Shown one piece after another: positions 2,729-48,210 of a stretch of DNA of 64,000 bases (position 1 is the first letter of the stretch; the number at the start of each line of letters is the position of its first letter). The notes below the pieces were generated by a model. That model was not told where the DNA came from. It was given only the letters and a program-made list of their open reading frames with translations, and made no database searches. The position numbers were made by a program, and so were the translations under genes. Location: NCBI GenBank assembly GCA_963699525.1, contig CAVOUI010000012.1, forward strand, positions 47,839 through 111,838, read 5' to 3'. The DNA comes from an uncultured beta proteobacterium. Lineage in GTDB: Bacteria; Pseudomonadota; Gammaproteobacteria; Burkholderiales; SG8-41.

Positions 2729-3211
2729 TCATGGATGAAGCTCGAACTCCCCGTTGATTTCGACCGCAATGCCGCGCGGCAAGGCGGCGTGTCCCACCGC
2801 CGAGCGGGCGTGCTTGCCGAACTCGGGACCCCAGAGTTCGAAAAAAAGATCCGAGGCGCCGTCGATAACTTGAGGCTGCTGGACGAAATCCGGCGCGCAG
2901 TTGCACATGCCGAACAGGCGCAGCACGCGCTTCACCCGGTCCAGGTCGCCACAATGCGCCTTGATCGTAGCCATCATGGTGAGGGCCACCGCGCGCGCGG
3001 TCGCGTAGCCTTCCTCCACCGTGATGTCCACGCCGAACTTGCCGGTCTGCCGGACACTGGGCAGCTTGGGCAGGTCCAGTCCGTGGCCCGACAGCAGGAG
3101 TAGCGTGCCGGACTGGGTGCACCCCGTGCGGTTGTTCTTCGGGAAGACGAACGGGGGCGGCAACTCGTAGCCCATTCGCTTCAGACGTGATTCGATGGTG
3201 CCCATGGTCAT
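2729..3211 (-). CDS. RidA/YjgF (Rid) family protein
   Basis: 160 aa; Rid-like motifs (ARAVALTMMATIKA, GIAVEINGEFEL). Confidence 0.7.
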   Translation of the reverse strand: MTMGTIESRLKRMGYELPPPFVFPKNNRTGCTQSGTLLLLSGHGLDLPKLPSVRQTGKFGVDITVEEGYATARAVALTMMATIKAHCGDLDRVKRVLRLFGMCNCAPDFVQQPQVIDGASDLFFELWGPEFGKHARSAVGHAALPRGIAVEINGEFELHP

Positions 3212-4230
3212 TGGGGCTTGATGCCGATGGCTTCGCCGAGCTTGCGTGTGCGGGCGATGTAGTCGCGCGCAAAGGCCTCGAATTTCGCCGGCGGGCTCGA
3301 CACCGGCTCCGCGCCGAGCACGAACAGGCGCTCGCCGACGTCGGGCAGCGCAAGAATGCGCGCCATTTCCTTTGACACGCGCTCCCGGATCGGCAGCGGG
3401 GTGCCGGCCGGCGCGAACACGCCGAACCAGTCGTCGCCCTCGTACCCGGGCAGCCCCGCTTGCGCGAGGCTCGGTATGCCCGGCAGGAAACGGGCGCCGG
3501 CGGGAGATGTCGTCGCCAGGATTTGCAGCTTGCCCGCCCGCGCGAGCGGGATCGCATTCGGGCCCGGCGCAAACGCGTAGAGGACCCGCCCGGTCATCGC
3601 CTCGTTGACCGCTTCCGGCGTGCCGCGCTGCGGCGCATGGTCGGCCTTGATGCCCGCGAGGTGGGCCACGGCGGCCGCGTGTAGATGGGCGGTGCTGCCG
3701 ACGCCGGCCGAAGTGTAGAAAATTCCGGCGGGCTGCTTCTTGGCGTACGCGATCATCTCCTTGAGCGAGCTGAAGCCGTGCGACGTCGATACGACCAGGA
3801 AGCTCGGCGAACGCGCCATCTGGCCGACGCCCGAGAAATCGCGCGTCGCGTCGTAGGGCAGGCTGCGATCGATCGCGGCGCGCACGGCGAACGCGCTCGC
3901 CACCGCGAGGAAGGTGCGGCCATCGGGCTTCTGTGTCGCGACGTACTGGGAACCGACCACGCCGCCGGCGCCCACCCGGTTATCCACCAGCGCGGTGATC
4001 TTCCAGTTGTCGGCAAGGTGCTTCGCGACGATGCGCATGATGACGTCCGTGCCGCCGCCCGCTGTGAAAGGGACCACGAAGCGGATTTGCTGCGGCGGAT
4101 AGCCTGCGGCGGGGTCGGGTGCCTGCGCCGGCGCCAACGCGGGCACCACCAGTGCGGCGACCGCCAGGACACGCAGCACCGGCAAGACGCCGCAGTGGCA
4201 ACGAACGGAAGTCAACGAGCTTGGTTTCAT
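3208..4230 (-). CDS. tctC: TctC (Bug-family) tripartite tricarboxylate transporter substrate-binding protein
   Basis: Signal peptide, FVVPFTAGGGTD, DNRVGAGG, conserved YTSAGVGST; AAAGGAAAA Shine-Dalgarno before the ATG at 4230. Confidence 0.85.
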   Translation of the reverse strand: MKPSSLTSVRCHCGVLPVLRVLAVAALVVPALAPAQAPDPAAGYPPQQIRFVVPFTAGGGTDVIMRIVAKHLADNWKITALVDNRVGAGGVVGSQYVATQKPDGRTFLAVASAFAVRAAIDRSLPYDATRDFSGVGQMARSPSFLVVSTSHGFSSLKEMIAYAKKQPAGIFYTSAGVGSTAHLHAAAVAHLAGIKADHAPQRGTPEAVNEAMTGRVLYAFAPGPNAIPLARAGKLQILATTSPAGARFLPGIPSLAQAGLPGYEGDDWFGVFAPAGTPLPIRERVSKEMARILALPDVGERLFVLGAEPVSSPPAKFEAFARDYIARTRKLGEAIGIKPQ

Positions 4231-4240
4231 GGTTTTCCTT

Positions 4241-5569
4241 TCAGGGAACATACACCCAGAGATCCAGCATCACGACCGCGCCCGGAACGCCGAGCGCGGG
4301 CACTTCGATCGCCGAGAACGGCAGGTGCCGGCCGGGCAGGTATTGCTGCCAGACCTGCCAGGCGCCGTTGAAGTCGCCAAGACTCGTATGGAACTGCTGC
4401 GCGCGCACCACGTTGGCGAGTGAAGTGCCGGCCTTGCGGCAGATGCGCTGCGCCTGCGCGAGCACGGTGTCCATCTGCAGTTGCACGGCGCTGCCAAAGT
4501 GCGGCTGGCGCGGATCGATGCGCGCTGACGGGGCGAGCGCTCCGCCCGCGTCCACCGCCATCAGCCCGGACAGAAACAGCAGGTCACCGGCGCGGATTGC
4601 CTGCACGTGGCCGGCGTAGGCCGTGGGCACGCCGGCATCGATCACCTGTTTGCGGGTGCGGCCGCCGCGGCGCAGGCTGAGGGTGTTGATCTCGATGCGG
4701 CCGGCCTCGCAGATGAAGCCGGGCGTGGCGGTGGTGATGAGGGTGGTGGCGGGCGGCGACTCCGGAAAGTGCTTCGCCCACACTTCGTTGAAGGCCGGGA
4801 TGTCATTGACGTCGCGCAGGTAGACCTGCGCCTTCACCACTTCGGCGAGCGTGTTGCCGACGCTCGCCAGCGCAGGCTTGAGCTTGCGCTCGATCACGAA
4901 CTCGGTCTCGAGCTTGATCGGCGTGCCCTTCCACAGGTGCCCGGCCGGCATCCGTGCCGCGGGATCGATCGGGCCTTCCTCGGTCTTGAGCGCTTCCGCG
5001 GTCTGGCCCGCCACGAACACGTAGTCGCCGCAGGTGAGCACCGGGCTGTAGGCGGAGGTCGCGTGCACCGGAAGATTCTTCGGGCGGTGCTGCACCACCT
5101 CGAAGCCCTTGGCGGGGACGACCGCCATCAGCTGCACTTCCATGTCCTGCCCCGCGAGCAGGAATTTCTGATGCAGGTTCGAGGTGCTGGGCGGCACGTG
5201 GCCCGCGAAGAAATCGCGCCGCACTTCGTGGTAGGCGGGAACGACCTGCCCGCCCGTGTAGTACTGGTCGACCCGCACGACATGCTTGCGGTCGGTGCCG
5301 CCGGCTTTCAGCACTTTCTCGAAATTGGCAAAGATGCGCTGCGCCTCTTTTTTGTGCTTCGGCAGACCGTGGCGCGGCGCGGACTCGTCGACCACCTCGG
5401 CCGCCATGCCGCTCACGAAATCGGCTGTGCCTTTGTGTCCGGTGGCAAACACCCAGCGGCCGGCGCGCACGCCGGGCGCGTAGCGAATGTCGCCGGGCTG
5501 GATGGTGACCGGAAGCAACGCGGTGACTGCGGATTCGGGCCGCGCGGACTTCTTGCTGGCAGGCATCAA
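4241..5569 (-). CDS. Multi-domain RidA/YjgF-like protein (three Rid-like modules, 442 aa)
   Basis: Repeated YjgF-like segments (VFVAGQTA, VYLRDVND; GHVQAIRAGDLLFLSG, DLWVYV). Confidence 0.65.
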   Translation of the reverse strand: MMPASKKSARPESAVTALLPVTIQPGDIRYAPGVRAGRWVFATGHKGTADFVSGMAAEVVDESAPRHGLPKHKKEAQRIFANFEKVLKAGGTDRKHVVRVDQYYTGGQVVPAYHEVRRDFFAGHVPPSTSNLHQKFLLAGQDMEVQLMAVVPAKGFEVVQHRPKNLPVHATSAYSPVLTCGDYVFVAGQTAEALKTEEGPIDPAARMPAGHLWKGTPIKLETEFVIERKLKPALASVGNTLAEVVKAQVYLRDVNDIPAFNEVWAKHFPESPPATTLITTATPGFICEAGRIEINTLSLRRGGRTRKQVIDAGVPTAYAGHVQAIRAGDLLFLSGLMAVDAGGALAPSARIDPRQPHFGSAVQLQMDTVLAQAQRICRKAGTSLANVVRAQQFHTSLGDFNGAWQVWQQYLPGRHLPFSAIEVPALGVPGAVVMLDLWVYVP

Positions 5570-5626: not shown

Positions 5627-7897
5627 TCACTCGAGAACACCGAGGGTGACGATGCTTTGCGGACTATTGCCCGCGGCGAACGGGCTATTCGCGATCGCCG
5701 TTAACGCACCGGTGGCCGGGTTGATCGCATAGGCGGAAATGCTGTTGTTGTTGATACCGGAATTCGCGGCATAGGCGAACCTACCGCTGAAGTCCACGGT
5801 TACCGATCGCGGTTCCAGGCCTGCGGCGAAGGGGCTAGGCAGCGTCAGCGCACCGGTGGCGGCGTTGATCCCGTAGGCGGAGATGCTGTTGGAGCCGTTG
5901 TTCGCCACGTAGACAAACCGTCCGGCCGGGTCGACCGTCACCGACCAGGGCGTCAAGCCCGCGGCGAATGGGCTTCCGGTAATCAGGGTCAGTGCACCCG
6001 TGACGGAGTCGATCGAATACGCCGATACGCCGGAGCCACCGCTGATGTGCGTCACGTAGACGAAGCGCCCGTTTGGGTCCACCGTCACCGACCGAGGGCC
6101 CTGGCCTGTCAGGATTGTGCCTATCGGCGTGAGAGTGCCCGGATTGAGGATCACACCCGTATCAATCCGGTAGGCCGAAACGCTGTTGCCCTGAAAATTC
6201 GCCACGTACACGAACCGCCCGCTCGGGTCCACCGTTACGGAAACGGGGTCGTTCCCAGCGGCATATGGGCTGGCCAGGCCGGCGAGGACCCCGTTATTCG
6301 GGTCGATCGAGTAGGCGGAGACGCTATCGGAGCCAAGATTCGCTACGTAGAGGAACCGCCCGCTCGGGTCGACGGCGACGGACTGGGGCCCGGACACAGC
6401 GGCAACCCCGCCGGAGAACGGGCTTCCCGGCACCGGCGTCAGGGCCCCTGTGCCGGGGTTGATCGCGTAGCCCGAGAGATTGTTGGAACCGGCGTTAGCG
6501 GCGTAGACAAATCTTCCCATCGGATCGGCGGCGACCGATAGCGGCGTGTCCTCCGTGAGGCTGTTGCCGGCCGGCGCCAGAGCGCCCGTGGACGCGTTGA
6601 TCGTATACGCGGAAACCGAGTTGCCCACGCTGTTCGCCGCATAGGCGAATCTGGGCCGGAAGACGAGCGGCGCCGTTCCCTTGCTCACGGCGACGGATCT
6701 CGGAGCCGACTGGGCACTGACGGTTGCGGAACTCGCGAGTGGCGTGAGCGCGCCGGTCGCGTTGTTCAGCCGATACATGGAGACGTCGTTCGAGGCGACA
6801 TTCGTCACGTATACAAACTGACTGCTCGGATCGACGGCAACTGAGCGGGGGCTGCTGCCCGCCGGGAACGGACTTCCACCGACCGGCATCAGCACCCCGC
6901 TGGCCGCGTCGATCGTGAAGGCGGAAACCGTTCCGGAGACCTCATTCGTCGCGTACACAAATTGCCCGCCCGCGTCCACGGCAACGCTGCTGACACCGCT
7001 GCCGGCAAGAAACGGGCTTCCGGCCACGGGCGTCAGCGCCCCGGTGGCCGCGTCGATCCGGTATACGGATACGTTGTTTGAGGCGCCATTTGCCGCCACG
7101 ACGAACCGCCCGCCCGGCTCGACCAGGACCGACTGGAGACCCGATTCAGCGGCAAACGGGCTGCCGGGCACCGGCGTCAGAGCACCGGTGCTGGTGTTGA
7201 TCGAATACGCCAAGATCTTTTTGTCGAGGAGATTGCTGGCCGCCACGTAGGCGAATCGGCCGCCCGGATCCACGGCCACGGAGAGGGGATTGGTGCCCGT
7301 CATGAACGGGCTCCCCGGCGCCGGAGTCAACGCGCCGGTGGCCGCGTTGATCGTGTAGCCGGAGATCGTGTCGGAAAGCTGGTTCACCGCATAAGCAACG
7401 CGCCCTGCCGCATCCACGGCCACGGATATCGGGCTATTGCCTGCAGCGAATGGGCTGCCCGCAACGGCAGTCAGCGCCCCGCTCGTGGGGTTGATCGTGT
7501 AGGCCGCGACGGCGCCCGCGTTGACATTGCTTGCCACAAAGACAAACCGGGCGTCGGCGTCCATCGCGACGGACGCGGCTCCCGGGATACCCGCGACGTA
7601 GCCGCGTGGCCGCAACTGGCCGGTGGCGGCGTCGACGGCGAAGATGGAGACTGAACTTTCCTGACCGTTGGCCACGTAGGCAAAGCGCGGCGCAGTTACC
7701 GTGGCTGGCGGCGGCATTCCACCGCCACCGCCACCGCCACCGCCTCCACCACCGCACGCAGCGAGGGCGATGGAAACCAGGAGCAGCGATGTCTTGAGAA
7801 ATCGGTGTTTCAATCCGTTCGCGATCCCGGATTGCCCCGGCGGATCGTCGAGGGCAGGGCAGTACGAAATCGCGGCTGAGTTTTTCGGTTCCATCAT
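5627..7897 (-). CDS. Lipoprotein with ~14 YVTN/lactonase-type beta-propeller repeats (two predicted 7-bladed propellers); the likely true start is TTG at 7813
   Basis: Repeats of the form YVAN..SN.VS.Y.ID..TGALTPV.GSPF.AG..P.SVAVDPSGRF.Y; lipobox LLLVSIALAAC followed by a G12 linker. Confidence 0.8.
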   Translation of the reverse strand: MMEPKNSAAISYCPALDDPPGQSGIANGLKHRFLKTSLLLVSIALAACGGGGGGGGGGGGMPPPATVTAPRFAYVANGQESSVSIFAVDAATGQLRPRGYVAGIPGAASVAMDADARFVFVASNVNAGAVAAYTINPTSGALTAVAGSPFAAGNSPISVAVDAAGRVAYAVNQLSDTISGYTINAATGALTPAPGSPFMTGTNPLSVAVDPGGRFAYVAASNLLDKKILAYSINTSTGALTPVPGSPFAAESGLQSVLVEPGGRFVVAANGASNNVSVYRIDAATGALTPVAGSPFLAGSGVSSVAVDAGGQFVYATNEVSGTVSAFTIDAASGVLMPVGGSPFPAGSSPRSVAVDPSSQFVYVTNVASNDVSMYRLNNATGALTPLASSATVSAQSAPRSVAVSKGTAPLVFRPRFAYAANSVGNSVSAYTINASTGALAPAGNSLTEDTPLSVAADPMGRFVYAANAGSNNLSGYAINPGTGALTPVPGSPFSGGVAAVSGPQSVAVDPSGRFLYVANLGSDSVSAYSIDPNNGVLAGLASPYAAGNDPVSVTVDPSGRFVYVANFQGNSVSAYRIDTGVILNPGTLTPIGTILTGQGPRSVTVDPNGRFVYVTHISGGSGVSAYSIDSVTGALTLITGSPFAAGLTPWSVTVDPAGRFVYVANNGSNSISAYGINAATGALTLPSPFAAGLEPRSVTVDFSGRFAYAANSGINNNSISAYAINPATGALTAIANSPFAAGNSPQSIVTLGVLE
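7705..7757. repeat. (CCACCG)n/(GGN)n hexanucleotide simple-sequence repeat encoding the poly-Gly linker of the propeller lipoprotein
   Basis: ccaccgccaccgccaccgccaccgcctccaccaccg. Confidence 0.8.
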
Positions 7898-10550: not shown

Positions 10551-10725
10551 GGACCCGGCCGCGGGGTCAGACCCCCTTGATGCGGTAGTGGCAGCCCGCC
10601 GCGGACTCGAACCGCGAACCTTCCGCTTCAGAGGCGGACGCTCTACCAATTGCGCTAGCGGGCAGCAGGTTTGCCGGACCGGGGTCCGGTCTCGTTCGAC
10701 CGTGCGCTGTCGTGGGAAGTTCGAA
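10551..10725. repeat. Direct repeat copy 2 (tRNA-Gln plus leader and trailer)
   Basis: ~90% identical to 671-846. Confidence 0.8.
10589..10664 (-). tRNA. tRNA-Gln (anticodon CTG), second copy
   Basis: Identical to the 710-785 gene. Confidence 0.8.
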
Positions 10726-17057: not shown

Positions 17058-17789
17058 ATGAAGATGCTCGAGGGGAAGACGGTTGCGATGACGGGCGGCG
17101 GCGGCGCACTCGGGCGCTGCTACGGCCTCGCCATGGCAAAAGCCGGCGCGGCCATCGCGGTATCGGACGTCAAACTCGCCGCTGCGCAGGCGACGGCGGA
17201 CGCCATCGTTAAGGCCGGTGGCCGCGCGATCGCGGTCCAGACGGACGTGACCCGGGCGGCGGCGTTCGAGCAGCTCCTCGATCGCGCCGAGGCCGCGTTC
17301 GGTCCGCTCGACGTGCTGCTCAACATTGCCGGCATCTTTCCGCGGCGGGCGCTCGTGGATTTGCCGGAGGAGGAGTGGGACGCGGTAATCACGACCAATC
17401 TGAAAAGCGTCTACCTCGGCGCCCGCGCCGCGATCCGCCGCATGCTGCCGCGCAAGCGCGGAGTGGTCCTCAGCACGGCCTCCGGAACCGGAATCCGGGG
17501 GCAGCCCAATTCATCGGCCTATTCCGCCTCCAAGGCGGGGATCATCGGCTTCACCCGCGCGGTTTCGCTCGAGCTCAAAGACTCGGGCGTGCGCATCAAC
17601 TGCTTCGGCCCCGGCGCGACGGACACTCCGCTCTGGCGCGTCGGCAAAAGCGAGCAGGACATCAAGCGCCTGCTGGCCGCGGGCTACGTCTATCAGCCGG
17701 ACGATTTCTCGAACGTCGTCGTGTTCCTCGCGAGCGACCTGTCCGCGCCGTTGAACGGCGAGTTCATCAGCCGCGACTTGCACCGCTAG
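17058..17789 (+). CDS. SDR-family oxidoreductase
   Basis: MTGGGGALG, NIAG, YSASKAG. Confidence 0.85.
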   Translation: MKMLEGKTVAMTGGGGALGRCYGLAMAKAGAAIAVSDVKLAAAQATADAIVKAGGRAIAVQTDVTRAAAFEQLLDRAEAAFGPLDVLLNIAGIFPRRALVDLPEEEWDAVITTNLKSVYLGARAAIRRMLPRKRGVVLSTASGTGIRGQPNSSAYSASKAGIIGFTRAVSLELKDSGVRINCFGPGATDTPLWRVGKSEQDIKRLLAAGYVYQPDDFSNVVVFLASDLSAPLNGEFISRDLHR

Positions 17790-18313
17790 CGCGAGCCCGC
17801 CGGCGCGACGAGCTGGCGGGCGACCTCATCCACGTGGCGCAGCGTGAGCGCCCGGACTTCCTCCGGCTTGAGGTTGCTGATCGGGTGCGGCAGCGCGACG
17901 AACGGGTGCCCGGCCATGCCCCGGCCGCGGAACTGGAACTCGGCCGCCTTGAGGAAGGCGGTCGTGATGACGACGGTGGCGGGAATGCCGCGTTTCTCGA
18001 ACTCGATGGTGTCGTGCACACTGCACAACGTGCACGAGCCTCACCCGCCGAGCGCCGCGACGGCGACTTGCGCCTCCTTTGCCATTTCATCGATCAGGGC
18101 ATCCGGTGCGGGCTTCGAGTAGTGGTCCTTCCGCCGCAGGATGACGCGCGCAGCGCCGTAGCGCTCGCGCAGCGCGGCGCCGATCGTCTCGAGAATGATG
18201 TCGCCCTGCTCCTTGGTGTTGTCGAGCAGCGCCACGACCTTGCCCGCGAGGCTGGCGGGGCGCGGCGCGGCTGCGATTGCGCGGACGCCGCTGCCGGCGC
18301 TGGGGTCGATCAA
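17786..18313 (-). CDS. Candidate UGSC-family selenoprotein with an in-frame TGA (Sec) at 18041-18043 and a SECIS-like hairpin
   Basis: ORF 18041-18313 ends ...AVAALGG-TGA and continues in the same frame as GSCTLCSVHDTIEF (ORF 17786-18028), giving GG-U-GSC; an 8-bp hairpin UCGUGCAC-N10-GUGCACGA begins 5 nt after the UGA. Confidence 0.6.
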
Positions 18314-18371
18314 ATCCGGATCCTTCGCTCATGGTGTGTCCTTTCGTGTGGAGATCGGGTTCAATGGAATG

Positions 18372-19410
18372 TCACGTCGAATACGCGCGGCTCACCGCGC
18401 GGCTCGCGACCGTGATGCCGTGCATTACCAGGCTGCTCGGCGATCCGGAGCCGCCGGCGACGATCAGGTGCAGGTCGCCGGCATCGCCGACCGCGGGAAC
18501 GAACGCGCCGTCGTCGTTGAGGTTGACCTCGAAGGGCCAGCGCTTTGCGCCGGAAGCGCCGCGCCAGATGCCGCCGCGCCGGATTTCGCCCAGGCGCCGG
18601 CCGGCGCGCTCGATCAGCAGCTTGTGGACGGCGTCGCGCGACAGCCCGGCATCGGCGAATACCTGTGCATGCTGCGGGCTCAGCACCACCGCCATGTCCG
18701 CCTGGCGGTAGATGTTGCCGCCGCCGAGGGCGGACATCATGTCGGCGATCGCGACGACCAGGCGCTCCGGCTGTCTCGCTGGCGTCGTCCCATACCAGAA
18801 CCGGGCCCTCGAGCGGAATCGCGGTCACGACGTTTTCCCCGGGCCCGAACCCGTGCGCGCTCGCGTACGACGGCCACGGGCTCTCGGCTTCGTTCTCGGC
18901 GACGCAGTAGGTATAGCGCCACGGCCCGCCGAATCCGCTCAACGCCGTGATCCCGGGAATGCCGCCGCCGAGATTCATCATCATGAGGCGCAGCGCGCGG
19001 CCGATGGTTGCGTTTGCCCGGAAGCCGGGCCCGAAGCAGCCGACGCCGCCATGCAGCCCGATTTCCGCGGCGTACGGCCCGTTGACGAGGACGAAAGGCG
19101 CGCCCGCGCTCGTCGTCGCCTGCAGCAGGAGCAGATTGAAGCGTTCCTCGAGCACGCATTCCATGGCGCCGATCACCACCGGCAGGTAGGCGGGCATGCA
19201 GCCCGCCATCACGGCGTGCAGCGCGATCGCGCGCACCGTGGCCGGCGCCATGAGCGGCGGCACGTCGCCGATCGATTCGTCGGGATCGCGCGACGTCGCG
19301 GCCAGCATGGCGGCGAGCCGCTCTTCGGTGGGCGGGACGACCGGCAGGCCGTCCGACCATTCCTTGTCGAAGAAATTCTCGATGGCTTTTTCGGTTTCGT
19401 TCATCGCCAT
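18372..19410 (-). pseudogene. Conserved hypothetical protein (~345 aa) with a frameshift near 18750
   Basis: The N-terminal 200 aa are protein-like in the 18361-19410 frame; the C-terminal 120 aa continue in the 18372-18740 frame. Confidence 0.5.
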
Positions 19411-24806: not shown

Positions 24807-25431
24807 ATGAGCAGCCCAGCGAGCAAGGCAGTCGCGGATAAGCGGCGGTTCAAGCTGATCCCGGTCGAGGAGCTGACGCCGGAGCAGAAGAAGGTGGCGG
24901 ACGCGATCCGGTCGGGGCCGCGCGCCGCCGTGAAGAACTCGTCTGCCGCCAAGCCGGGGCCGCTCGGCGGACCGTTCAACGTCTGGCTGCGCAGCCCGGG
25001 GATCGGCAACCTCATTCAGAGCCTGGGCGCGGAAATCCGCTTCCGCAGCTCCCTGCCTTCGAAGCTCAATGAGCTGGCGATCATCGTGACGGCGCGTCAC
25101 TGGACGTGCCAGTACGAGTGGTTCGCGCATCACCGCCTTGCGCTGGAGGCGGGGCTCAACCCCGCCATCGGCGAGGACATCGCGCAGGGACGGCGGCCGG
25201 CGAAAATGGATGCCGACGAGACGATCGTCTACAACTTCTCCCGCGAGCTGCACGAGAACGCATGGGGTGAGCGAAGCCACGTTCAAGGCCGCGCGCGAGC
25301 GCTTCGGCGAGCGCGGCGTCGTGGATCTGATCGCGGTGAACGGGTTCTACGGGCTGGTATCGATGGCGCTGAACGTGGACCACACTCCGTTGCCGGAGGG
25401 CGAGAAGCTACCGCTGCCGCCGCTCGATTGA
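24807..25431 (+). pseudogene. Carboxymuconolactone decarboxylase (AhpD-like) family protein, frameshift at ~25262
   Basis: The frame changes between ...HENAWG and VSEATFKAARERFG; consistent with a 2-nt loss in a gtgtg run. Confidence 0.65.
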
Positions 25432-25813: not shown

Positions 25814-26683
25814 ATGAGCCAGTTGCCCTCCGCCGTACGCGGCGCCCTGTGGATGGGCGGTGCTCTGCTGTCGTTCTCTCTCATGGCGGTTGCCGTGCGC
25901 GAGCTGCTCGGGACGCTGGGCAGCTTCGAGATACTTTTTCTGCGCAGCCTCGTCTCGCTCGTCGTGATGCTCGCGCTCCTGCCCTGGTCGGGCATGCGGG
26001 CGCTGCGCACGCGCTTGATCGGCGTGCACGTCATCCGCAACGTGTTCCACTTCGGCGGGCAGTACGCGTGGGTGTACGCGATCGGGATGCTGCCGCTCGC
26101 GACCGTCTTCGCGATCGAGTTCACCATGCCGGTGTGGACCGCCGTGCTCGCGGTGCTGATGCTCGGCGAGCGCCTGGACCGCGGCCGCATGGTCATGCTC
26201 GCGCTGGGATTGGCCGGCATACTCATCATCCTGAAGCCCGGCTTCGCGCAGGTGTCGCCGGCGGCGGTGGTGATGCTCGCCGGCTCCTTCGCCTACGCCG
26301 CGACCATGATCGCCACCAAGCGCCTCGCCGGTCACGATACGGCGTTCGCGGTGCTGTTCTATATGTCGGCGATCCAGGTGCCGCTCGGCCTGCTCCCGGC
26401 GCTTCCGGGCTGGGTCGATCCGGGGCTCGCCGAGCTGCCGTGGATCGTCGCCGTCGGCGGAAGCGGGCTCACCGCGCATTTCTGCCTGACGCGGGCTCTC
26501 CACGCCGCCGACGCGACGCTCGTCGTTCCGTTCGATTTCCTGCGGCTGCCGCTGATCGCCGTGATCGGCATGGCGATCTATGACGAGCCGCTCGAGGTCA
26601 CGACGCTCCTCGGGGCGGCGGTGATCTTTTCCGGCACCTACTACAGCATCCGGCGCGCGAGCCGCGCCCCGAAGGAGCCGTGA
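25814..26683 (+). CDS. DMT (EamA-like) family transporter
   Basis: Ten TM helices, duplicated EamA architecture. Confidence 0.8.
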   Translation: MSQLPSAVRGALWMGGALLSFSLMAVAVRELLGTLGSFEILFLRSLVSLVVMLALLPWSGMRALRTRLIGVHVIRNVFHFGGQYAWVYAIGMLPLATVFAIEFTMPVWTAVLAVLMLGERLDRGRMVMLALGLAGILIILKPGFAQVSPAAVVMLAGSFAYAATMIATKRLAGHDTAFAVLFYMSAIQVPLGLLPALPGWVDPGLAELPWIVAVGGSGLTAHFCLTRALHAADATLVVPFDFLRLPLIAVIGMAIYDEPLEVTTLLGAAVIFSGTYYSIRRASRAPKEP

Positions 26684-32982: not shown

Positions 32983-33052
32983 TAGTTGGAGCGGGAGTCG
33001 AACCCGCGACTCGTCGATTACAAGTCGACTGCTCTACCTACTGAGCTATCCA
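32983..33052 (-). tRNA. tRNA-Thr(TGT)-like remnant: the D, anticodon and T arms are intact but the 5' acceptor strand is missing or unpaired (pseudo-tRNA)
   Basis: Anticodon arm GTCGA-CTTGTAA-TCGAC, T arm GCGGG-TTCGACT-CCCGC; it starts directly after the CCA of the next tRNA; acceptor pairing is only 4 of 7. Confidence 0.4.
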
Positions 33053-33125
33053 TGGCGACGGATATGGGAGTCGAACCCATGACCTCGGTCGTCCGGACCG
33101 CGCTCTACCGCTGAGCTAATCCGTC
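33053..33125 (-). tRNA. tRNA-like gene with a 5-nt anticodon loop (CGGAC); identity undetermined
   Basis: Perfect acceptor GACGGAT/ATCCGTC, D arm GCTC/GAGC, T arm ATGGG-TTCGACT-CCCAT, G73 and CCA; the anticodon stem CGGTC/GACCG closes a 5-nt loop. Confidence 0.5.
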
Positions 33126-33256
33126 CAACATCCGCCGCTCCCGCGCCGCGGTACACGCCAAGCCGATGTTTCAGGCCGAGCGCGCCAGGGAGGACTCACG
33201 AGCCTCGCCCGCTGCGATGTTTCGCGTTCACGACGAATTCTGTGCAGGGATGTGGC

Positions 33257-33323
33257 TGGGGTGATCCGCCGGATTCGCACCGGCACTCCCGGAGTCACGG
33301 TCCGGTGTGCTGCTGTTACACCA
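33257..33323 (-). tRNA. Degenerate tRNA-His-like remnant
   Basis: Anticodon arm CCGGA-CCGTGAC-TCCGG (GTG), T arm GCCGG-TGCGAAT-CCGGC, 3' GGATCAC-C-CCA; the D arm and 5' acceptor are degraded. Confidence 0.35.
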
Positions 33324-33337
33324 GGATCTCCGTTGTC

Positions 33338-33413
33338 TGGCTGTCCAGGCAGGCTTCGAACCTGCACGCCTCGCGTTAACAGCGCGCCGCTCTACCGGTT
33401 GAGCTACTGGACA
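33338..33413 (-). tRNA. tRNA-Asn (GTT)
   Basis: Canonical cloverleaf, loop CTGTTAA, CCA encoded. Confidence 0.85.
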
Positions 33414-33418
33414 AAAGC

Positions 33419-33493
33419 TGGTACCGGCCCACGGAATTGAACCGCGCGTCGCCCGCTTATCGGGCGGGTGCTCTGCCGTTGAGCTAGACCGGC
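33419..33493 (-). tRNA. tRNA-Ile (GAT) with C33 in place of the universal U33
   Basis: Anticodon loop CCGATAA; acceptor has two G-U pairs; T loop TTCAATT. Confidence 0.7.
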
Positions 33494-33498
33494 GAAAC

Positions 33499-33573
33499 GG
33501 GCGAGGGCGCCTGGATTCGAACCAGGGACATCCGGCTTCAGAGGCCGGCGTTCTACCGCTGAACTACGCCCCG
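33499..33573 (-). tRNA. tRNA-Gln (CTG), distinct in sequence from the 710 and 10589 copies; no CCA encoded (CCC follows)
   Basis: Anticodon arm CCGGC-CTCTGAA-GCCGG; T arm CCTGG-TTCGAAT-CCAGG; 1:72 is a C-C mismatch. Confidence 0.7.
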
Positions 33574-33577
33574 ATAC

Positions 33578-33653
33578 TGGCGCTTCCCCTCCGTTACGAT
33601 CGGAGCTCTCCGGCTCTTCAGGCCGGCGCTGTCACCAGATCAGCTAGAGAAGC
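33578..33653 (-). tRNA. tRNA-Phe (GAA) with a T-loop ATCGTAA (A54/T58 swapped relative to the canonical T54/A58)
   Basis: 76 nt; loop CTGAAGA; otherwise a regular cloverleaf with CCA. Confidence 0.7.
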
Positions 33654-33659
33654 CTGTGT

Positions 33660-33738
33660 TGGTGCCCCGGGCGTCGATTCGAACGCGCGTCCTCCTGCGT
33701 ACTAGGCAGGCGCTCTTCCGGCTGAGCTACGCGGGGCG
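33660..33738 (-). tRNA. Defective tRNA-like gene with anticodon AGT (Thr-like): one extra nucleotide before the D stem and an unpaired T stem
   Basis: Anticodon arm CCTGC-CTAGTAC-GCAGG; the T-loop TTCGAAT has non-complementary flanks GCGCG/CGACG. Confidence 0.4.
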
Positions 33739-33815
33739 TGGTGGTTCCGCTTCGATTCGAACGAAGGATTCCCGGGTTATGAGCCCGGTGCTTTGAGCCG
33801 CTAAGCTACGGAACC
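33739..33815 (-). tRNA. tRNA-Met (CAT), elongator type (G1-C72 paired)
   Basis: Perfect cloverleaf GGTTCCG...CGGAACC-A-CCA. Confidence 0.9.
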
Positions 33816-33822
33816 TCGTGTC

Positions 33823-33898
33823 TGGTACTCGGTGATGGTCTCGAACCATCGACCTCCTGTTTGTAAGACAGGCGCTCTGCCTTCTGAGCTAACCGAGC
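33823..33898 (-). tRNA. tRNA-Val (TAC)
   Basis: Loop CTTACAA; canonical arms; CCA. Confidence 0.9.
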
Positions 33899-33899
33899 A

Positions 33900-34121
33900 T
33901 GGTCGGCGCGGCAGGAGTTGAACCTGGCCCGCGGAGGGCGGAGCAGTGCCTGCGCCCCTTGGCGTAGGTGCGACCCCGTAGCGGGCCGAGCGCGCCGGTT
34001 TCATTCCGCGGGCCTATGCACGCCTTTGCGGTCGCATCCCCATGAATGGGGCCCCTGCTCCACGCTCCGGCGCGCCTTTCTGATTAAGAGTCAGCTACTC
34101 TGCCTGTTGAGTTACGCGCCG
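33900..34121 (-). tRNA. Split or interrupted tRNA-Lys (CTT): the 5' part (34075-34121: acceptor, D arm, anticodon arm) and the 3' part (33900-33927: T arm, acceptor, ACCA) are separated by ~147 bp of non-tRNA sequence
   Basis: 5' acceptor CGGCGCG pairs 7 of 7 with 3' CGCGCCG; anticodon arm GCTGA-CTCTTAA-TCAGA; T arm CCAGG-TTCAACT-CCTGC; the insert starts CGCGCCGG (a copy of the 3' acceptor) and contains the hairpin CCCCATTCATGGGG. Confidence 0.5.
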
Positions 34122-34129
34122 TGAAATCG

Positions 34130-34205
34130 TGGCGACGCTGGCGGGAGTCGAACCCGCGGCTTCTCGCTCGACAGGCGAGCACTCTGGCCGCTGAGTTACA
34201 GCGTC
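34130..34205 (-). tRNA. tRNA-Asp (GTC)
   Basis: Loop CTGTCGA, G73, CCA. Confidence 0.9.
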
Positions 34206-34214
34206 GTTCGAAAA

Positions 34215-34293
34215 TGGCGCCCCCGGAAGGATTTGAACCCTCGACCTCGCGGGCCGTGACCGCGCGCTCTGCGATTCCCTGAGCTACGGGGGC
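34215..34293 (-). tRNA. tRNA-Arg (ACG) with an 11-nt D loop and an atypical anticodon loop TCACGGC (C33)
   Basis: Perfect acceptor GCCCCCG/CGGGGGC; anticodon stem CGCGG/CCGCG. Confidence 0.65.
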
Positions 34294-34299
34294 AATTGT

Positions 34300-34376
34300 T
34301 GGTCTCGCCGGCAGGATTCGAACCTGCGGCCTCCCCGTCCCGAACGGGGCGCGCTGACCTGCTGCGCTACAGCGAG
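34300..34376 (-). tRNA. tRNA-Pro (CGG)
   Basis: Loop TTCGGGA, A73, CCA. Confidence 0.85.
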
Positions 34377-34379
34377 AAA

Positions 34380-34451
34380 TGTTCCCGGCCGGAATTGAAC
34401 CGGCATCTGCGGCTTGAAAGGCCGCCGTCCTCACCATTAGACGAAGGGAAC
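34380..34451 (-). tRNA. tRNA-Glu (TTC), no CCA encoded
   Basis: Glu-type 3-bp D stem GTC/GAC, loop CTTTCAA, T arm GCCGG-TTCAATT-CCGGC. Confidence 0.8.
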
Positions 34452-34455
34452 CCTT

Positions 34456-34529
34456 TGGGGCGGGCAGCGAGGATCGAACTCGCATCTCGACGCTGGCAAC
34501 GTCGCGCTCTACCGTTGAGCCATGTCCGC
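34456..34529 (-). tRNA. tRNA-Gly (GCC)
   Basis: Loop TTGCCAG, T arm GCGAG-TTCGATC-CTCGC, CCA; one A-C mismatch in the acceptor. Confidence 0.8.
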
Positions 34530-34625
34530 CCGGTATTGGCCACATCCCAAGTTGTAAAAGAACATTCCGCTTCATCCGGTCGCTATGCCGGAGCGGGACG
34601 GAAGCGCTTTGCTCCCGTCGAAATC

Positions 34626-34702
34626 TGGTGCCCCACCCGGGATTCGAACCCGGAGATCCATGTTTCTGAAACATGCGCGTATGCCGATTCCGCCAGCGGG
34701 GC
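34626..34702 (-). tRNA. tRNA-Leu (CAG)-like gene with a 5-nt variable loop (no long variable arm) but a Leu-type D arm
   Basis: TG-GCG-GAATCGGCATA-CGC D arm as in bacterial tRNA-Leu; anticodon arm CATGT-TTCAGAA-ACATG; variable GATCT; A73; CCA. Confidence 0.55.
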
Positions 34703-47505: not shown

Positions 47506-48210
47506 TTACTTCGTCGTGCTGCGGCGTCCGGGCACCGGGAGCTTGCGCGGCTGCGCCGGCTTGAGGGGCCCCCAGACGCGGCTGTAGTAGGTGTCGGCGA
47601 GCTGCAGCGCGGCCACCGGGTTGTGGCCGAGCACGCGGTCCTTCGCGACCAGCACCGTCGTCAGCCCTTTCGCGTGCCGGAAGAACAGGCTGTCGTGGCC
47701 GATGCACAATCCCAGTACGACATTGAGTTCGCACCCGTGCTGGTTGAGCAGCTCGGCCTGGCACACCGGGTTGCACAGCGCCTCGAATTGCCCGGGACGG
47801 ACCTTTTCATGATCCGCAATGCCGAGATCCTCCTTCGGGATGCTGCCGGTCTTGCAGGCGGCCGACACCACCTCGAAGCCGTGGCTTTCCAGGATGCCGC
47901 TCAGCACGTAGGCGTGGTCGACGAAGCTGATGCAGTTGGCGATGCCGATCCTGCGGTAGCCCATGCGCTTCGCGAACTGGACGATTTCCTCGACCCGGGT
48001 CCACTTGCAGTAGCCCTCGGATTCCACGAGCGCGGATTCCCGCGAGATCTTGCGGATTTCCGGGTCGTCGTAGAGCGCAGCCGCGGCGGATTGGGTTTCG
48101 GGGTCGACCTTGGTCGGGCAGAACCCGGGTCCGCGCTCGGCATCCTCTCCCTGGCGGCAGGCCCGGACGGTCGGGGGACAGTACGCGCAAGCGGGGTCTT
48201 CGTATTTCAT
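47506..48210 (-). CDS. DUF1847 Cys-rich metal-binding protein
   Basis: GAGGAG Shine-Dalgarno; CAYCPP...C motifs. Confidence 0.7.
   Translation of the reverse strand: MKYEDPACAYCPPTVRACRQGEDAERGPGFCPTKVDPETQSAAAALYDDPEIRKISRESALVESEGYCKWTRVEEIVQFAKRMGYRRIGIANCISFVDHAYVLSGILESHGFEVVSAACKTGSIPKEDLGIADHEKVRPGQFEALCNPVCQAELLNQHGCELNVVLGLCIGHDSLFFRHAKGLTTVLVAKDRVLGHNPVAALQLADTYYSRVWGPLKPAQPRKLPVPGRRSTTK

Follow-up and report, generated by a model that had tools for sequence, protein, structure and literature searches.

The 64,000-nt stretch analysed here (the window: positions 47,839 to 111,838 of contig CAVOUI010000012.1, from an uncultured betaproteobacterium) carries on its minus strand, at 17786-18313, a gene whose reading frame runs through an in-frame TGA. 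With considerable confidence we regard it as a genuine UGSC-family selenoprotein gene, whose product of about 19 kDa would be completed when the UGA is decoded as selenocysteine (Sec) through a selenocysteine insertion sequence (SECIS) in the mRNA. Such a gene had been proposed in a sequence-only reading of the window, from two open reading frames (ORFs), the motif at their join and a hairpin. The gene, with TGA at the Sec/Cys position, is borne out by conservation of the TGA in related loci, by purifying selection downstream of it and by scores above the cut-offs of the family hidden Markov models (HMMs). The hairpin had to be redrawn. The elements concerned are the following.

17786..18313, minus strand: UGSC-family (seleno)protein gene, with TTG start at 18313, Sec-TGA at 18043-18041 and TAG at 17788-17786
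18041..18043, minus strand: in-frame TGA, the putative Sec codon (U of the U-G-S-C motif), from codon conservation in homologs
18011..18029, minus strand: conserved SECIS upper hairpin GUUGUGCA-GUG-UGCACGAC, from covariation and low synonymous variation
18037-18030 with 18019-18012, minus strand: alternative hairpin UCGUGCAC / GUGCACGA of the sequence-only reading, which forms in the window and is not conserved

The reading frame and its family

The upstream ORF (18313-18044) has ...AQVAVAALGG as its last residues and meets the TGA at 18043-18041; the end at 18041 given for it earlier includes the TGA. Beyond, the same frame reads GSCTLCSVHDTIEFEKRG... / GSCTLCSVHDTIEFEKRGIPATVV... for 84 codons up to the TAG at 17788-17786. 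As read in the window the product is 90 aa, U and 84 aa (175 aa in all), and GG-TGA-GSC at the join reconstitutes the motif GG-U-GSC. Coordinates and translation confirm that the two ORFs are one frame across the TGA.

Translated with C in place of the TGA, the product of 175 aa scores 140 bits with the NCBIfam model NF041046, 'UGSC family (seleno)protein' (curated cut-off 125), and 170 bits with the Pfam model PF24696, 'UGSC' (cut-off 25; E = 6.7e-50). The Pfam match spans residues 2-169 of 175, and because this one match covers both ORFs, their join is far beyond chance. Residues C/U91, G92, S93 and C94 are invariant across the family alignment (A3), and the motif of the window protein stands at the conserved Sec/Cys column, as had been supposed. 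The literature recognises UGSC-containing proteins as a selenoprotein family marked by a UxxC motif and of uncharacterised function (PMC2398784, PMC13188914); in the Global Ocean Sampling (GOS) data it was found in 255 Sec forms and 21 Cys forms, and the family was more abundant in non-marine samples (PMC2398784). The window gene is an ordinary member of this described and curated family. It shares with the family as first described (Zhang & Gladyshev 2008, PMC2398784) the U-G-S-C at the Sec/Cys column, the predominance of Sec forms and a non-marine, soil-type source. Nothing essential is different; the fold model and the near-obligate pairing with a 345-aa protein, described below, are additions.

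The suspicion that standard callers miss this gene is justified by the way its homologs are databased. In a search with the whole protein, nearly all of the closest 120 matches are 96 aa long and end exactly at the position of the TGA. With the C-terminal part as query, the closest 120 matches are all ORFs of 72-89 aa that begin just past it. These fragments all carry PF24696 and, where named, are called 'hypothetical protein'. The 240 closest entries listed are all split fragments, save one partial sequence.

Conservation of the codon was examined in 70 related loci from species-representative genomes. Their proteins are 32-78% identical to that of the window, and most are Burkholderiales/Betaproteobacteria metagenome-assembled genomes (MAGs), with some Binatia, Chloroflexota, Acidimicrobiales and others, so that several phyla-level labels are represented. 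The codon is TGA in 68 of the 70 and TGC in two, both from Acidimicrobiales. Metagenome contigs about 89-97% identical to the window in DNA (L071-L079) all have TGA, as does every locus of the wider set L071-L083 that holds the UGSC gene. Cys codons in close relatives, combined with a genome-wide lack of Sec machinery, had been named earlier as the sign of a nonsense pseudogene; since relatives at about 89-97% identity carry TGA, the Cys codons are absent.

The sequence past the TGA evolves as coding sequence and is translated. The ratio of nonsynonymous to synonymous change (pN/pS) was compared on the two sides of the TGA among 61 gap-free homologs (59 distinct sequences): the 84 codons ahead of it give 0.34, and codons +11 to +76 past it give 0.28. 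By this measure purifying selection on the downstream half is as strong as that on the upstream half. Past the TGA, 63 of 66 matched sites keep the frame open for 79-84 codons. The second ORF is called from a point beyond codons +1 to +3 (G, S, C), which follow the TGA directly and vary at third positions only; the starts called for this ORF are internal TTG or GTG codons within the hairpin. Homologs of the Cys form consist of one uninterrupted chain of about 180 aa.

In the window TGA is the commonest normal stop, ending 19 of the 40 long, clearly coding ORFs. An alternative genetic code is rejected on that ground, and recoding of a codon that ordinarily ends translation here requires a local signal. 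At 26681, 37833 and 46446 there are further in-frame TGAs flanked by coding signal, and these three turned out to be ordinary gene boundaries; the UGSC TGA is the sole one in the window that resembles a recoding site. The comparisons argue that it is not a nonsense mutation but a decoded codon, and it very probably encodes selenocysteine.

The SECIS hairpin

The hairpin at 18029-18011 consists of 8 bp and a 3-nt loop opening with G-U; it follows the UGA after an 11-nt spacer and has a free energy of -10.3 kcal/mol. To score its covariation, 76 TGA-bearing sequences (65 distinct) were aligned without gaps and compared with 500 shuffles. In the alignment 99.2% of cells are paired, and three of the eight pairs show compensatory double changes. 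None of the 500 shuffles reached the score, and all slid controls were far lower. The cleanest case is L032, where two synonymous changes (Leu TTG to TTA and His CAC to CAT) turn a G-C pair into A-U; G-U intermediates occur in L052 and L079.

The codons that form the hairpin are constrained beyond their amino acids. Synonymous-codon entropy is 0-0.2 bit exactly at codons +4 to +10 (ACG TTG TGC AGT GTG CAC GAC) and 0.6-1.8 bits at the flanking codons (59 distinct sequences of the main subgroup). Leu in the hairpin is always TTG or TTA and Ser always AGT, despite the GC-rich genomes. In a divergent subgroup (L061-L068) both the encoded peptide, GSC[IT]SWGLHD, and the hairpin sequence, AUCGUGG-GGUCU-CCACGAU or GUCGUGG-GGUCU-CCACGAC, are different, and the hairpin keeps exactly the same register. 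The hairpin is absent from both Cys-form loci (z = +0.2).

Published criteria for a bacterial SECIS (bSECIS) are a loop of 3-9 nt, a stem of 4-16 bp, a G in the first two loop positions, a UGA-to-loop distance of 16-37 nt and a minimum free energy of -7.5 kcal/mol or lower (PMC13188914, Fig. 2). The window hairpin lies within every one of these bounds, with its GUG loop, 8 bp, 19 nt from UGA to loop and -10.3 kcal/mol. Its counterparts in the other subgroups range from -8.8 to -11.7 kcal/mol, and an outlier, L070, has a 6-bp hairpin whose -6.6 kcal/mol falls short of the energy bound. By its geometry and G-U loop, the hairpin is a candidate SelB-binding bSECIS. It resembles the E. coli fdhF-type element in lying within the coding sequence right after the UGA, in its short 8-bp upper stem and in its small apical loop opening with G-U (G-G-U-C-U in the divergent subgroup). 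The 11-nt spacer between UGA and stem also agrees with the spacing reported for the minimal fdhF element. It differs from that type in that its loop (GUG) has just 3 nt, provided that the closing A-U pair is made, and in that neither a conserved bulged U nor a lower stem is supported. A lower helix pairing alignment columns 16-21 with 51-56 was rejected, being 73% paired with two pairs broken in most sequences.

That a SECIS-like hairpin follows the UGA was thus correctly foreseen, and the conserved element fits the bSECIS model; the hairpin actually drawn was another one. Said to start 5 nt past the UGA, it starts 3 nt past it by our measurement. It has 8 bp, or 9 if a closing G-U pair is counted, with a free energy of -12 to -13 kcal/mol, and is mutually exclusive with the conserved hairpin, which starts 8 nt further downstream. 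As a SECIS it was rejected: 87.5% of its cells are paired, which equals the shuffled controls; 347 of the 500 shuffles reach its score; its third pair is broken in 53 of the 65 distinct sequences; and with 11 nt from UGA to loop and a 10-nt loop it falls outside the bSECIS model in both spacing and loop size. In the family consensus its energy is -6.1 kcal/mol and in L061 +4.2; it owes its extra stability in the window to codon +2, which is TCG here. Folding of the single sequence gave no significant result for the region (z = -0.73 and -1.08) and no decision between the two hairpins, and since this is so in GC-rich DNA, the claim of a hairpin needed comparative data. At Rfam gathering thresholds, the window gave tRNAs only.

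Two of the related loci may be mentioned here for their arrangement. L025, a MAG contig, has two UGSC copies 1.7 kb apart (3142-3204 and 4882-4944), both with TGA and hairpin, and L060 has only a diverged UGSC fragment (3723-3938) with two hairpin mismatches.

Decoding and the integrity of this copy

A ribosome that meets the UGA at 18043-18041 would have the hairpin 11 nt downstream, which would act as the bacterial SECIS. By analogy with other bacterial selenoprotein genes, the hairpin would recruit SelB carrying Sec-tRNA(Sec), selenocysteine would be inserted at the UGA and translation would go on for 84 codons. In the product, Sec91 and Cys94 (175-aa numbering; the Sec would be residue 97 in a product of 181 aa) most likely alternate between selenol/thiol and selenenylsulfide, and the protein would act with the adjacent 345-aa protein.

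Several points weigh against this account. Selenium in the protein is something that we infer, as are the selenenylsulfide chemistry and any substrate. No selA, selB, selD or tRNA-Sec is present in the 64-kb window or in the 0.83 Mb of flanks searched from related genomes, an uninformative result for both, obtained with an approximate SelD query. In the window the alternative hairpin is, taken alone, slightly more stable than the conserved one (-12 to -13 vs. -10.3 kcal/mol), and for this reason folding in this mRNA would be a competition. What is said below on structure rests on a Cys-form proxy that is 35% identical. Finally, a 1-nt insertion detaches the ATG start and the partner gene is frameshifted mid-gene; if these changes are real, the copy could be decaying.

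The last point concerns the following features.

18314..18332, minus strand: probable true 5′ end of the UGSC gene, with ATG at 18332-18330, from the Shine-Dalgarno AAAGGA at 18344-18339 and homolog starts
25258, 23356, 22540, 18773 and 18314: single-base insertions relative to metagenome contig L074, in four genes, from pairwise comparison

In close relatives the gene begins with ATG AGC GAA GGA TCC GGA TTG ATC (protein start MSEGSGLIDPS) behind a good Shine-Dalgarno, and homologs read from this ATG run for 96 aa up to the TGA. The ATG at 18332 is one base out of frame in the window because of an extra T (TTT, not TT, at 18315-18313). L074 and L075, 96-97% identical to the window, are without the extra base, and without it the UGSC product would be MSEGSGLIDPS..., of 181 aa. 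Over the 8.7 kb in common with L074 (97% identical) there are five 1-nt length differences, roughly one per 1.7 kb, all of them insertions in the window. As all five lie in the window and are spread over genes, assembly error fits better than targeted decay; the insertions are presumably such errors, and the true product presumably has 181 aa. The pattern points to an unpolished long-read assembly as the source of the window, in which other ORFs may also be artificially frameshifted.

That a genuine, inherited UGSC selenoprotein gene is now being lost here along with its partner through true mutations is therefore an unlikely alternative, even though the insertions at 18314 and 18773 strike the first codons of UGSC and the middle of the partner. 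Three further insertions, at 25258, 23356 and 22540, fall in other genes. The closest relatives come from long-read-style assemblies, and gene fragmentation is plain to see in one of them, L077. This copy retains an intact TGA, SECIS and full 175-codon frame, and substitutions relative to close relatives are mostly synonymous (pS 0.08-0.21, pN 0.02-0.03). Translation could still begin at the TTG, which has an AAGGA motif 7 nt ahead of it. Still less probable is a UGA read through without Sec, whether by near-cognate Trp or Cys or by SelB-mediated Cys insertion: in geometry and in its G-U loop the downstream hairpin matches a SelB-binding bSECIS, the family is a recognised Sec/Cys family with the strong excess of Sec forms in the GOS data cited above (PMC2398784), and general read-through would leave the zero synonymous variation over the hairpin unexplained. 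A plain stop, making the locus a nonsense pseudogene or two independent small genes, can hardly be entertained: although databases list the halves separately (96 aa and 72-89 aa) and TGA is a normal stop in this genome, the codon is fixed in nearly all loci across several phyla-level labels, the G-S-C codons ahead of the second ORF and the downstream half as a whole evolve as coding sequence, Cys forms are contiguous, one HMM covers both halves, and the starts called for the second half lie inside the hairpin.

Fold, partner protein and gene cluster

For structure, a natural Cys form (P0371, 35% identical, its Cys97 aligned to Sec) served as proxy. Its AlphaFold2 model (pLDDT 93.8, pTM 0.88) is a five-strand alternating beta-alpha domain, with Cys97 and Cys100 between strand 3 (residues 89-95) and the first turn of helix 3 (98-113). 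The best structure matches to this model in the PDB are flavodoxin-like or Rossmann-like, and no thioredoxin is among those listed; sequence searches of the PDB, with the single protein and with a profile, gave no significant match. UGSC thus models as a single flavodoxin-like alpha/beta domain. The thioredoxin-like fold suggested for it in the literature is rejected on this model. What UGSC does share with the thioredoxin-fold CxxC/UxxC oxidoreductases is a Sec/Cys pair two residues apart at a strand-helix junction, and the model places the C/U-x-x-C at the N-terminus of a helix, as in redox-type motifs. It is because the motif sits at this classic redox-active position that cycling of Sec91 and Cys94 is the most likely chemistry. 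In P0499, UGSC is followed by a pyridine nucleotide-disulphide oxidoreductase domain (PF07992, 103.7 bits) of thioredoxin-reductase-like type, and this flavoprotein fusion supports a putative dithiol or selenol-thiol redox role.

Weak matches to the GrdB model (TIGR01917) were obtained with all 31 reconstructed UGSC members tested (best E = 1.8e-5); 28 of them also match GrdF and GrdH, and seven match PrdB, for which the GOS table gives a UxxC Sec motif (PMC2398784). Residues 76-161 of the window protein, including the UGSC motif, align to positions 331-413 of the 431 in the GrdB model, at 17.5 bits against a family cut-off of 602. Scores so far below the cut-offs speak for remote homology rather than membership: UGSC is remotely related to the C-terminal segment of GrdB/PrdB. 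It is without the N-terminal part of about 330 aa that GrdB, GrdF, GrdH and PrdB have, and no GrdE/PrdA-type (pyruvoyl-proprotein) or GrdA-type partner is detectable among its neighbours. The hosts differ as well: UGSC is found in soil and freshwater Burkholderiales-type MAGs, whereas the Grd/Prd selenoprotein B reductases are known from amino-acid-fermenting anaerobes.

The neighbour that does accompany UGSC is of another kind.

18372..19410, minus strand: partner gene 'X345', encoding a 345-aa protein of an unannotated family, upstream of UGSC, with a 1-nt insertion near 18773-18779

In the window the insertion near 18773 divides X345 between two frames. A homolog of it lies within the fetched flanks of UGSC at 68 of the 70 loci, including those of Binatia, Acidimicrobiales and Chloroflexota; of the two exceptions, one locus is cut at a contig end and the other is a gene fragment. 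Its database homologs number at least 7,900. No Pfam or NCBIfam model matched X345 even at E <= 1-10, none of the 120 homologs listed has a Pfam domain or an informative name, and there is no convincing solved fold for the family. Three cysteines, at positions 71, 125 and 169 of alignment A4, are invariant.

An exhaustive search with the C-terminal 84 residues of the window UGSC gave 359 clusters at 50% identity. Among the top 150, which were examined, P0493, P0501, P0465, P0417, P0484 and P0453 are single chains of UGSC followed by X345, with an X345 part 31-46% identical to the partner (E 1e-42 to 1e-77). P0455 has both domains in reverse order and is of poor sequence quality. The 2008 paper mentions no more than a fusion of UGSC with a domain 'Unknown_1' (PMC2398784), which is probably X345. 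Synteny and fusion together are strong evidence that UGSC and X345 work together.

Genes clustered with UGSC encode short-chain dehydrogenases/reductases, TctC-type solute-binding proteins, an amidohydrolase (Amidohydro_2) and a two-subunit molybdenum hydroxylase. In two genome-sized contigs, L080 (8001-12202) and L082 (4678-9020), there are four tandem partner-sized ORFs (310-389 aa, no Pfam match), one of them a confirmed X345 homolog, beside a molybdenum hydroxylase gene and one UGSC gene. UGSC and X345 are probably the Sec-bearing redox or catalytic module of a two-part oxidoreductase in a catabolic cluster. We would go further only tentatively, in suggesting that among soil and freshwater bacteria the pair may be widespread as an undescribed selenoenzyme of two parts, fused in some cases. 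Its Sec domain would share a distant origin with the Sec-bearing part of the GrdB/PrdB reductases, and it would perform a reductive step in small-molecule catabolism.

As regards the sources of the loci, the UGSC proteins of four labelled 'uncultured Streptomycetaceae/Streptomyces' (L022, L029, L047 and L053) are 70-72% identical to that of the window, in the same range as Burkholderiales-labelled loci; the bin labels may be unreliable. Elsewhere in the window, 17-18 tRNA genes lie within 1.7 kb at 32987-34702 on the minus strand (Leu, Gly, Glu, Pro, Arg, Asp, Val, Met, Thr, Phe, Gln, Ile, Asn, His and Ser, with one Rfam-only match at 32987-33052), a density unusual for a betaproteobacterial-type chromosome. 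Two 154-nt copies, at 693-846 and 10572-10725, are 95% identical and 9,879 nt apart, and each has a tRNA-Gln(ctg) that differs in sequence from the tRNA-Gln of the array; the pair may flank an inserted segment or simply reflect a duplication. At 5674-7517 a 74-nt repeat unit occurs eight times, in copies 64-77% identical to the reference copy and spaced mostly 144-150 nt apart; the array would encode a repeat protein with units of about 48-50 aa.

In closing, the UGSC gene itself will not surprise a specialist, and what is added here is modest. Although curated, the family is still almost always mis-called in databases, the gene being routinely split by callers, and the signature of a TGA with the 19-nt hairpin can rescue such genes. 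New here are a UGSC SECIS supported by covariation, in a register that differs from that of the most obvious hairpin, and a confident flavodoxin-like model that would replace the presumed thioredoxin-like fold. New also is the near-obligate synteny with X345, which together with the fusions provides a handle on the function of a selenoprotein family that is among the most abundant in the environment.

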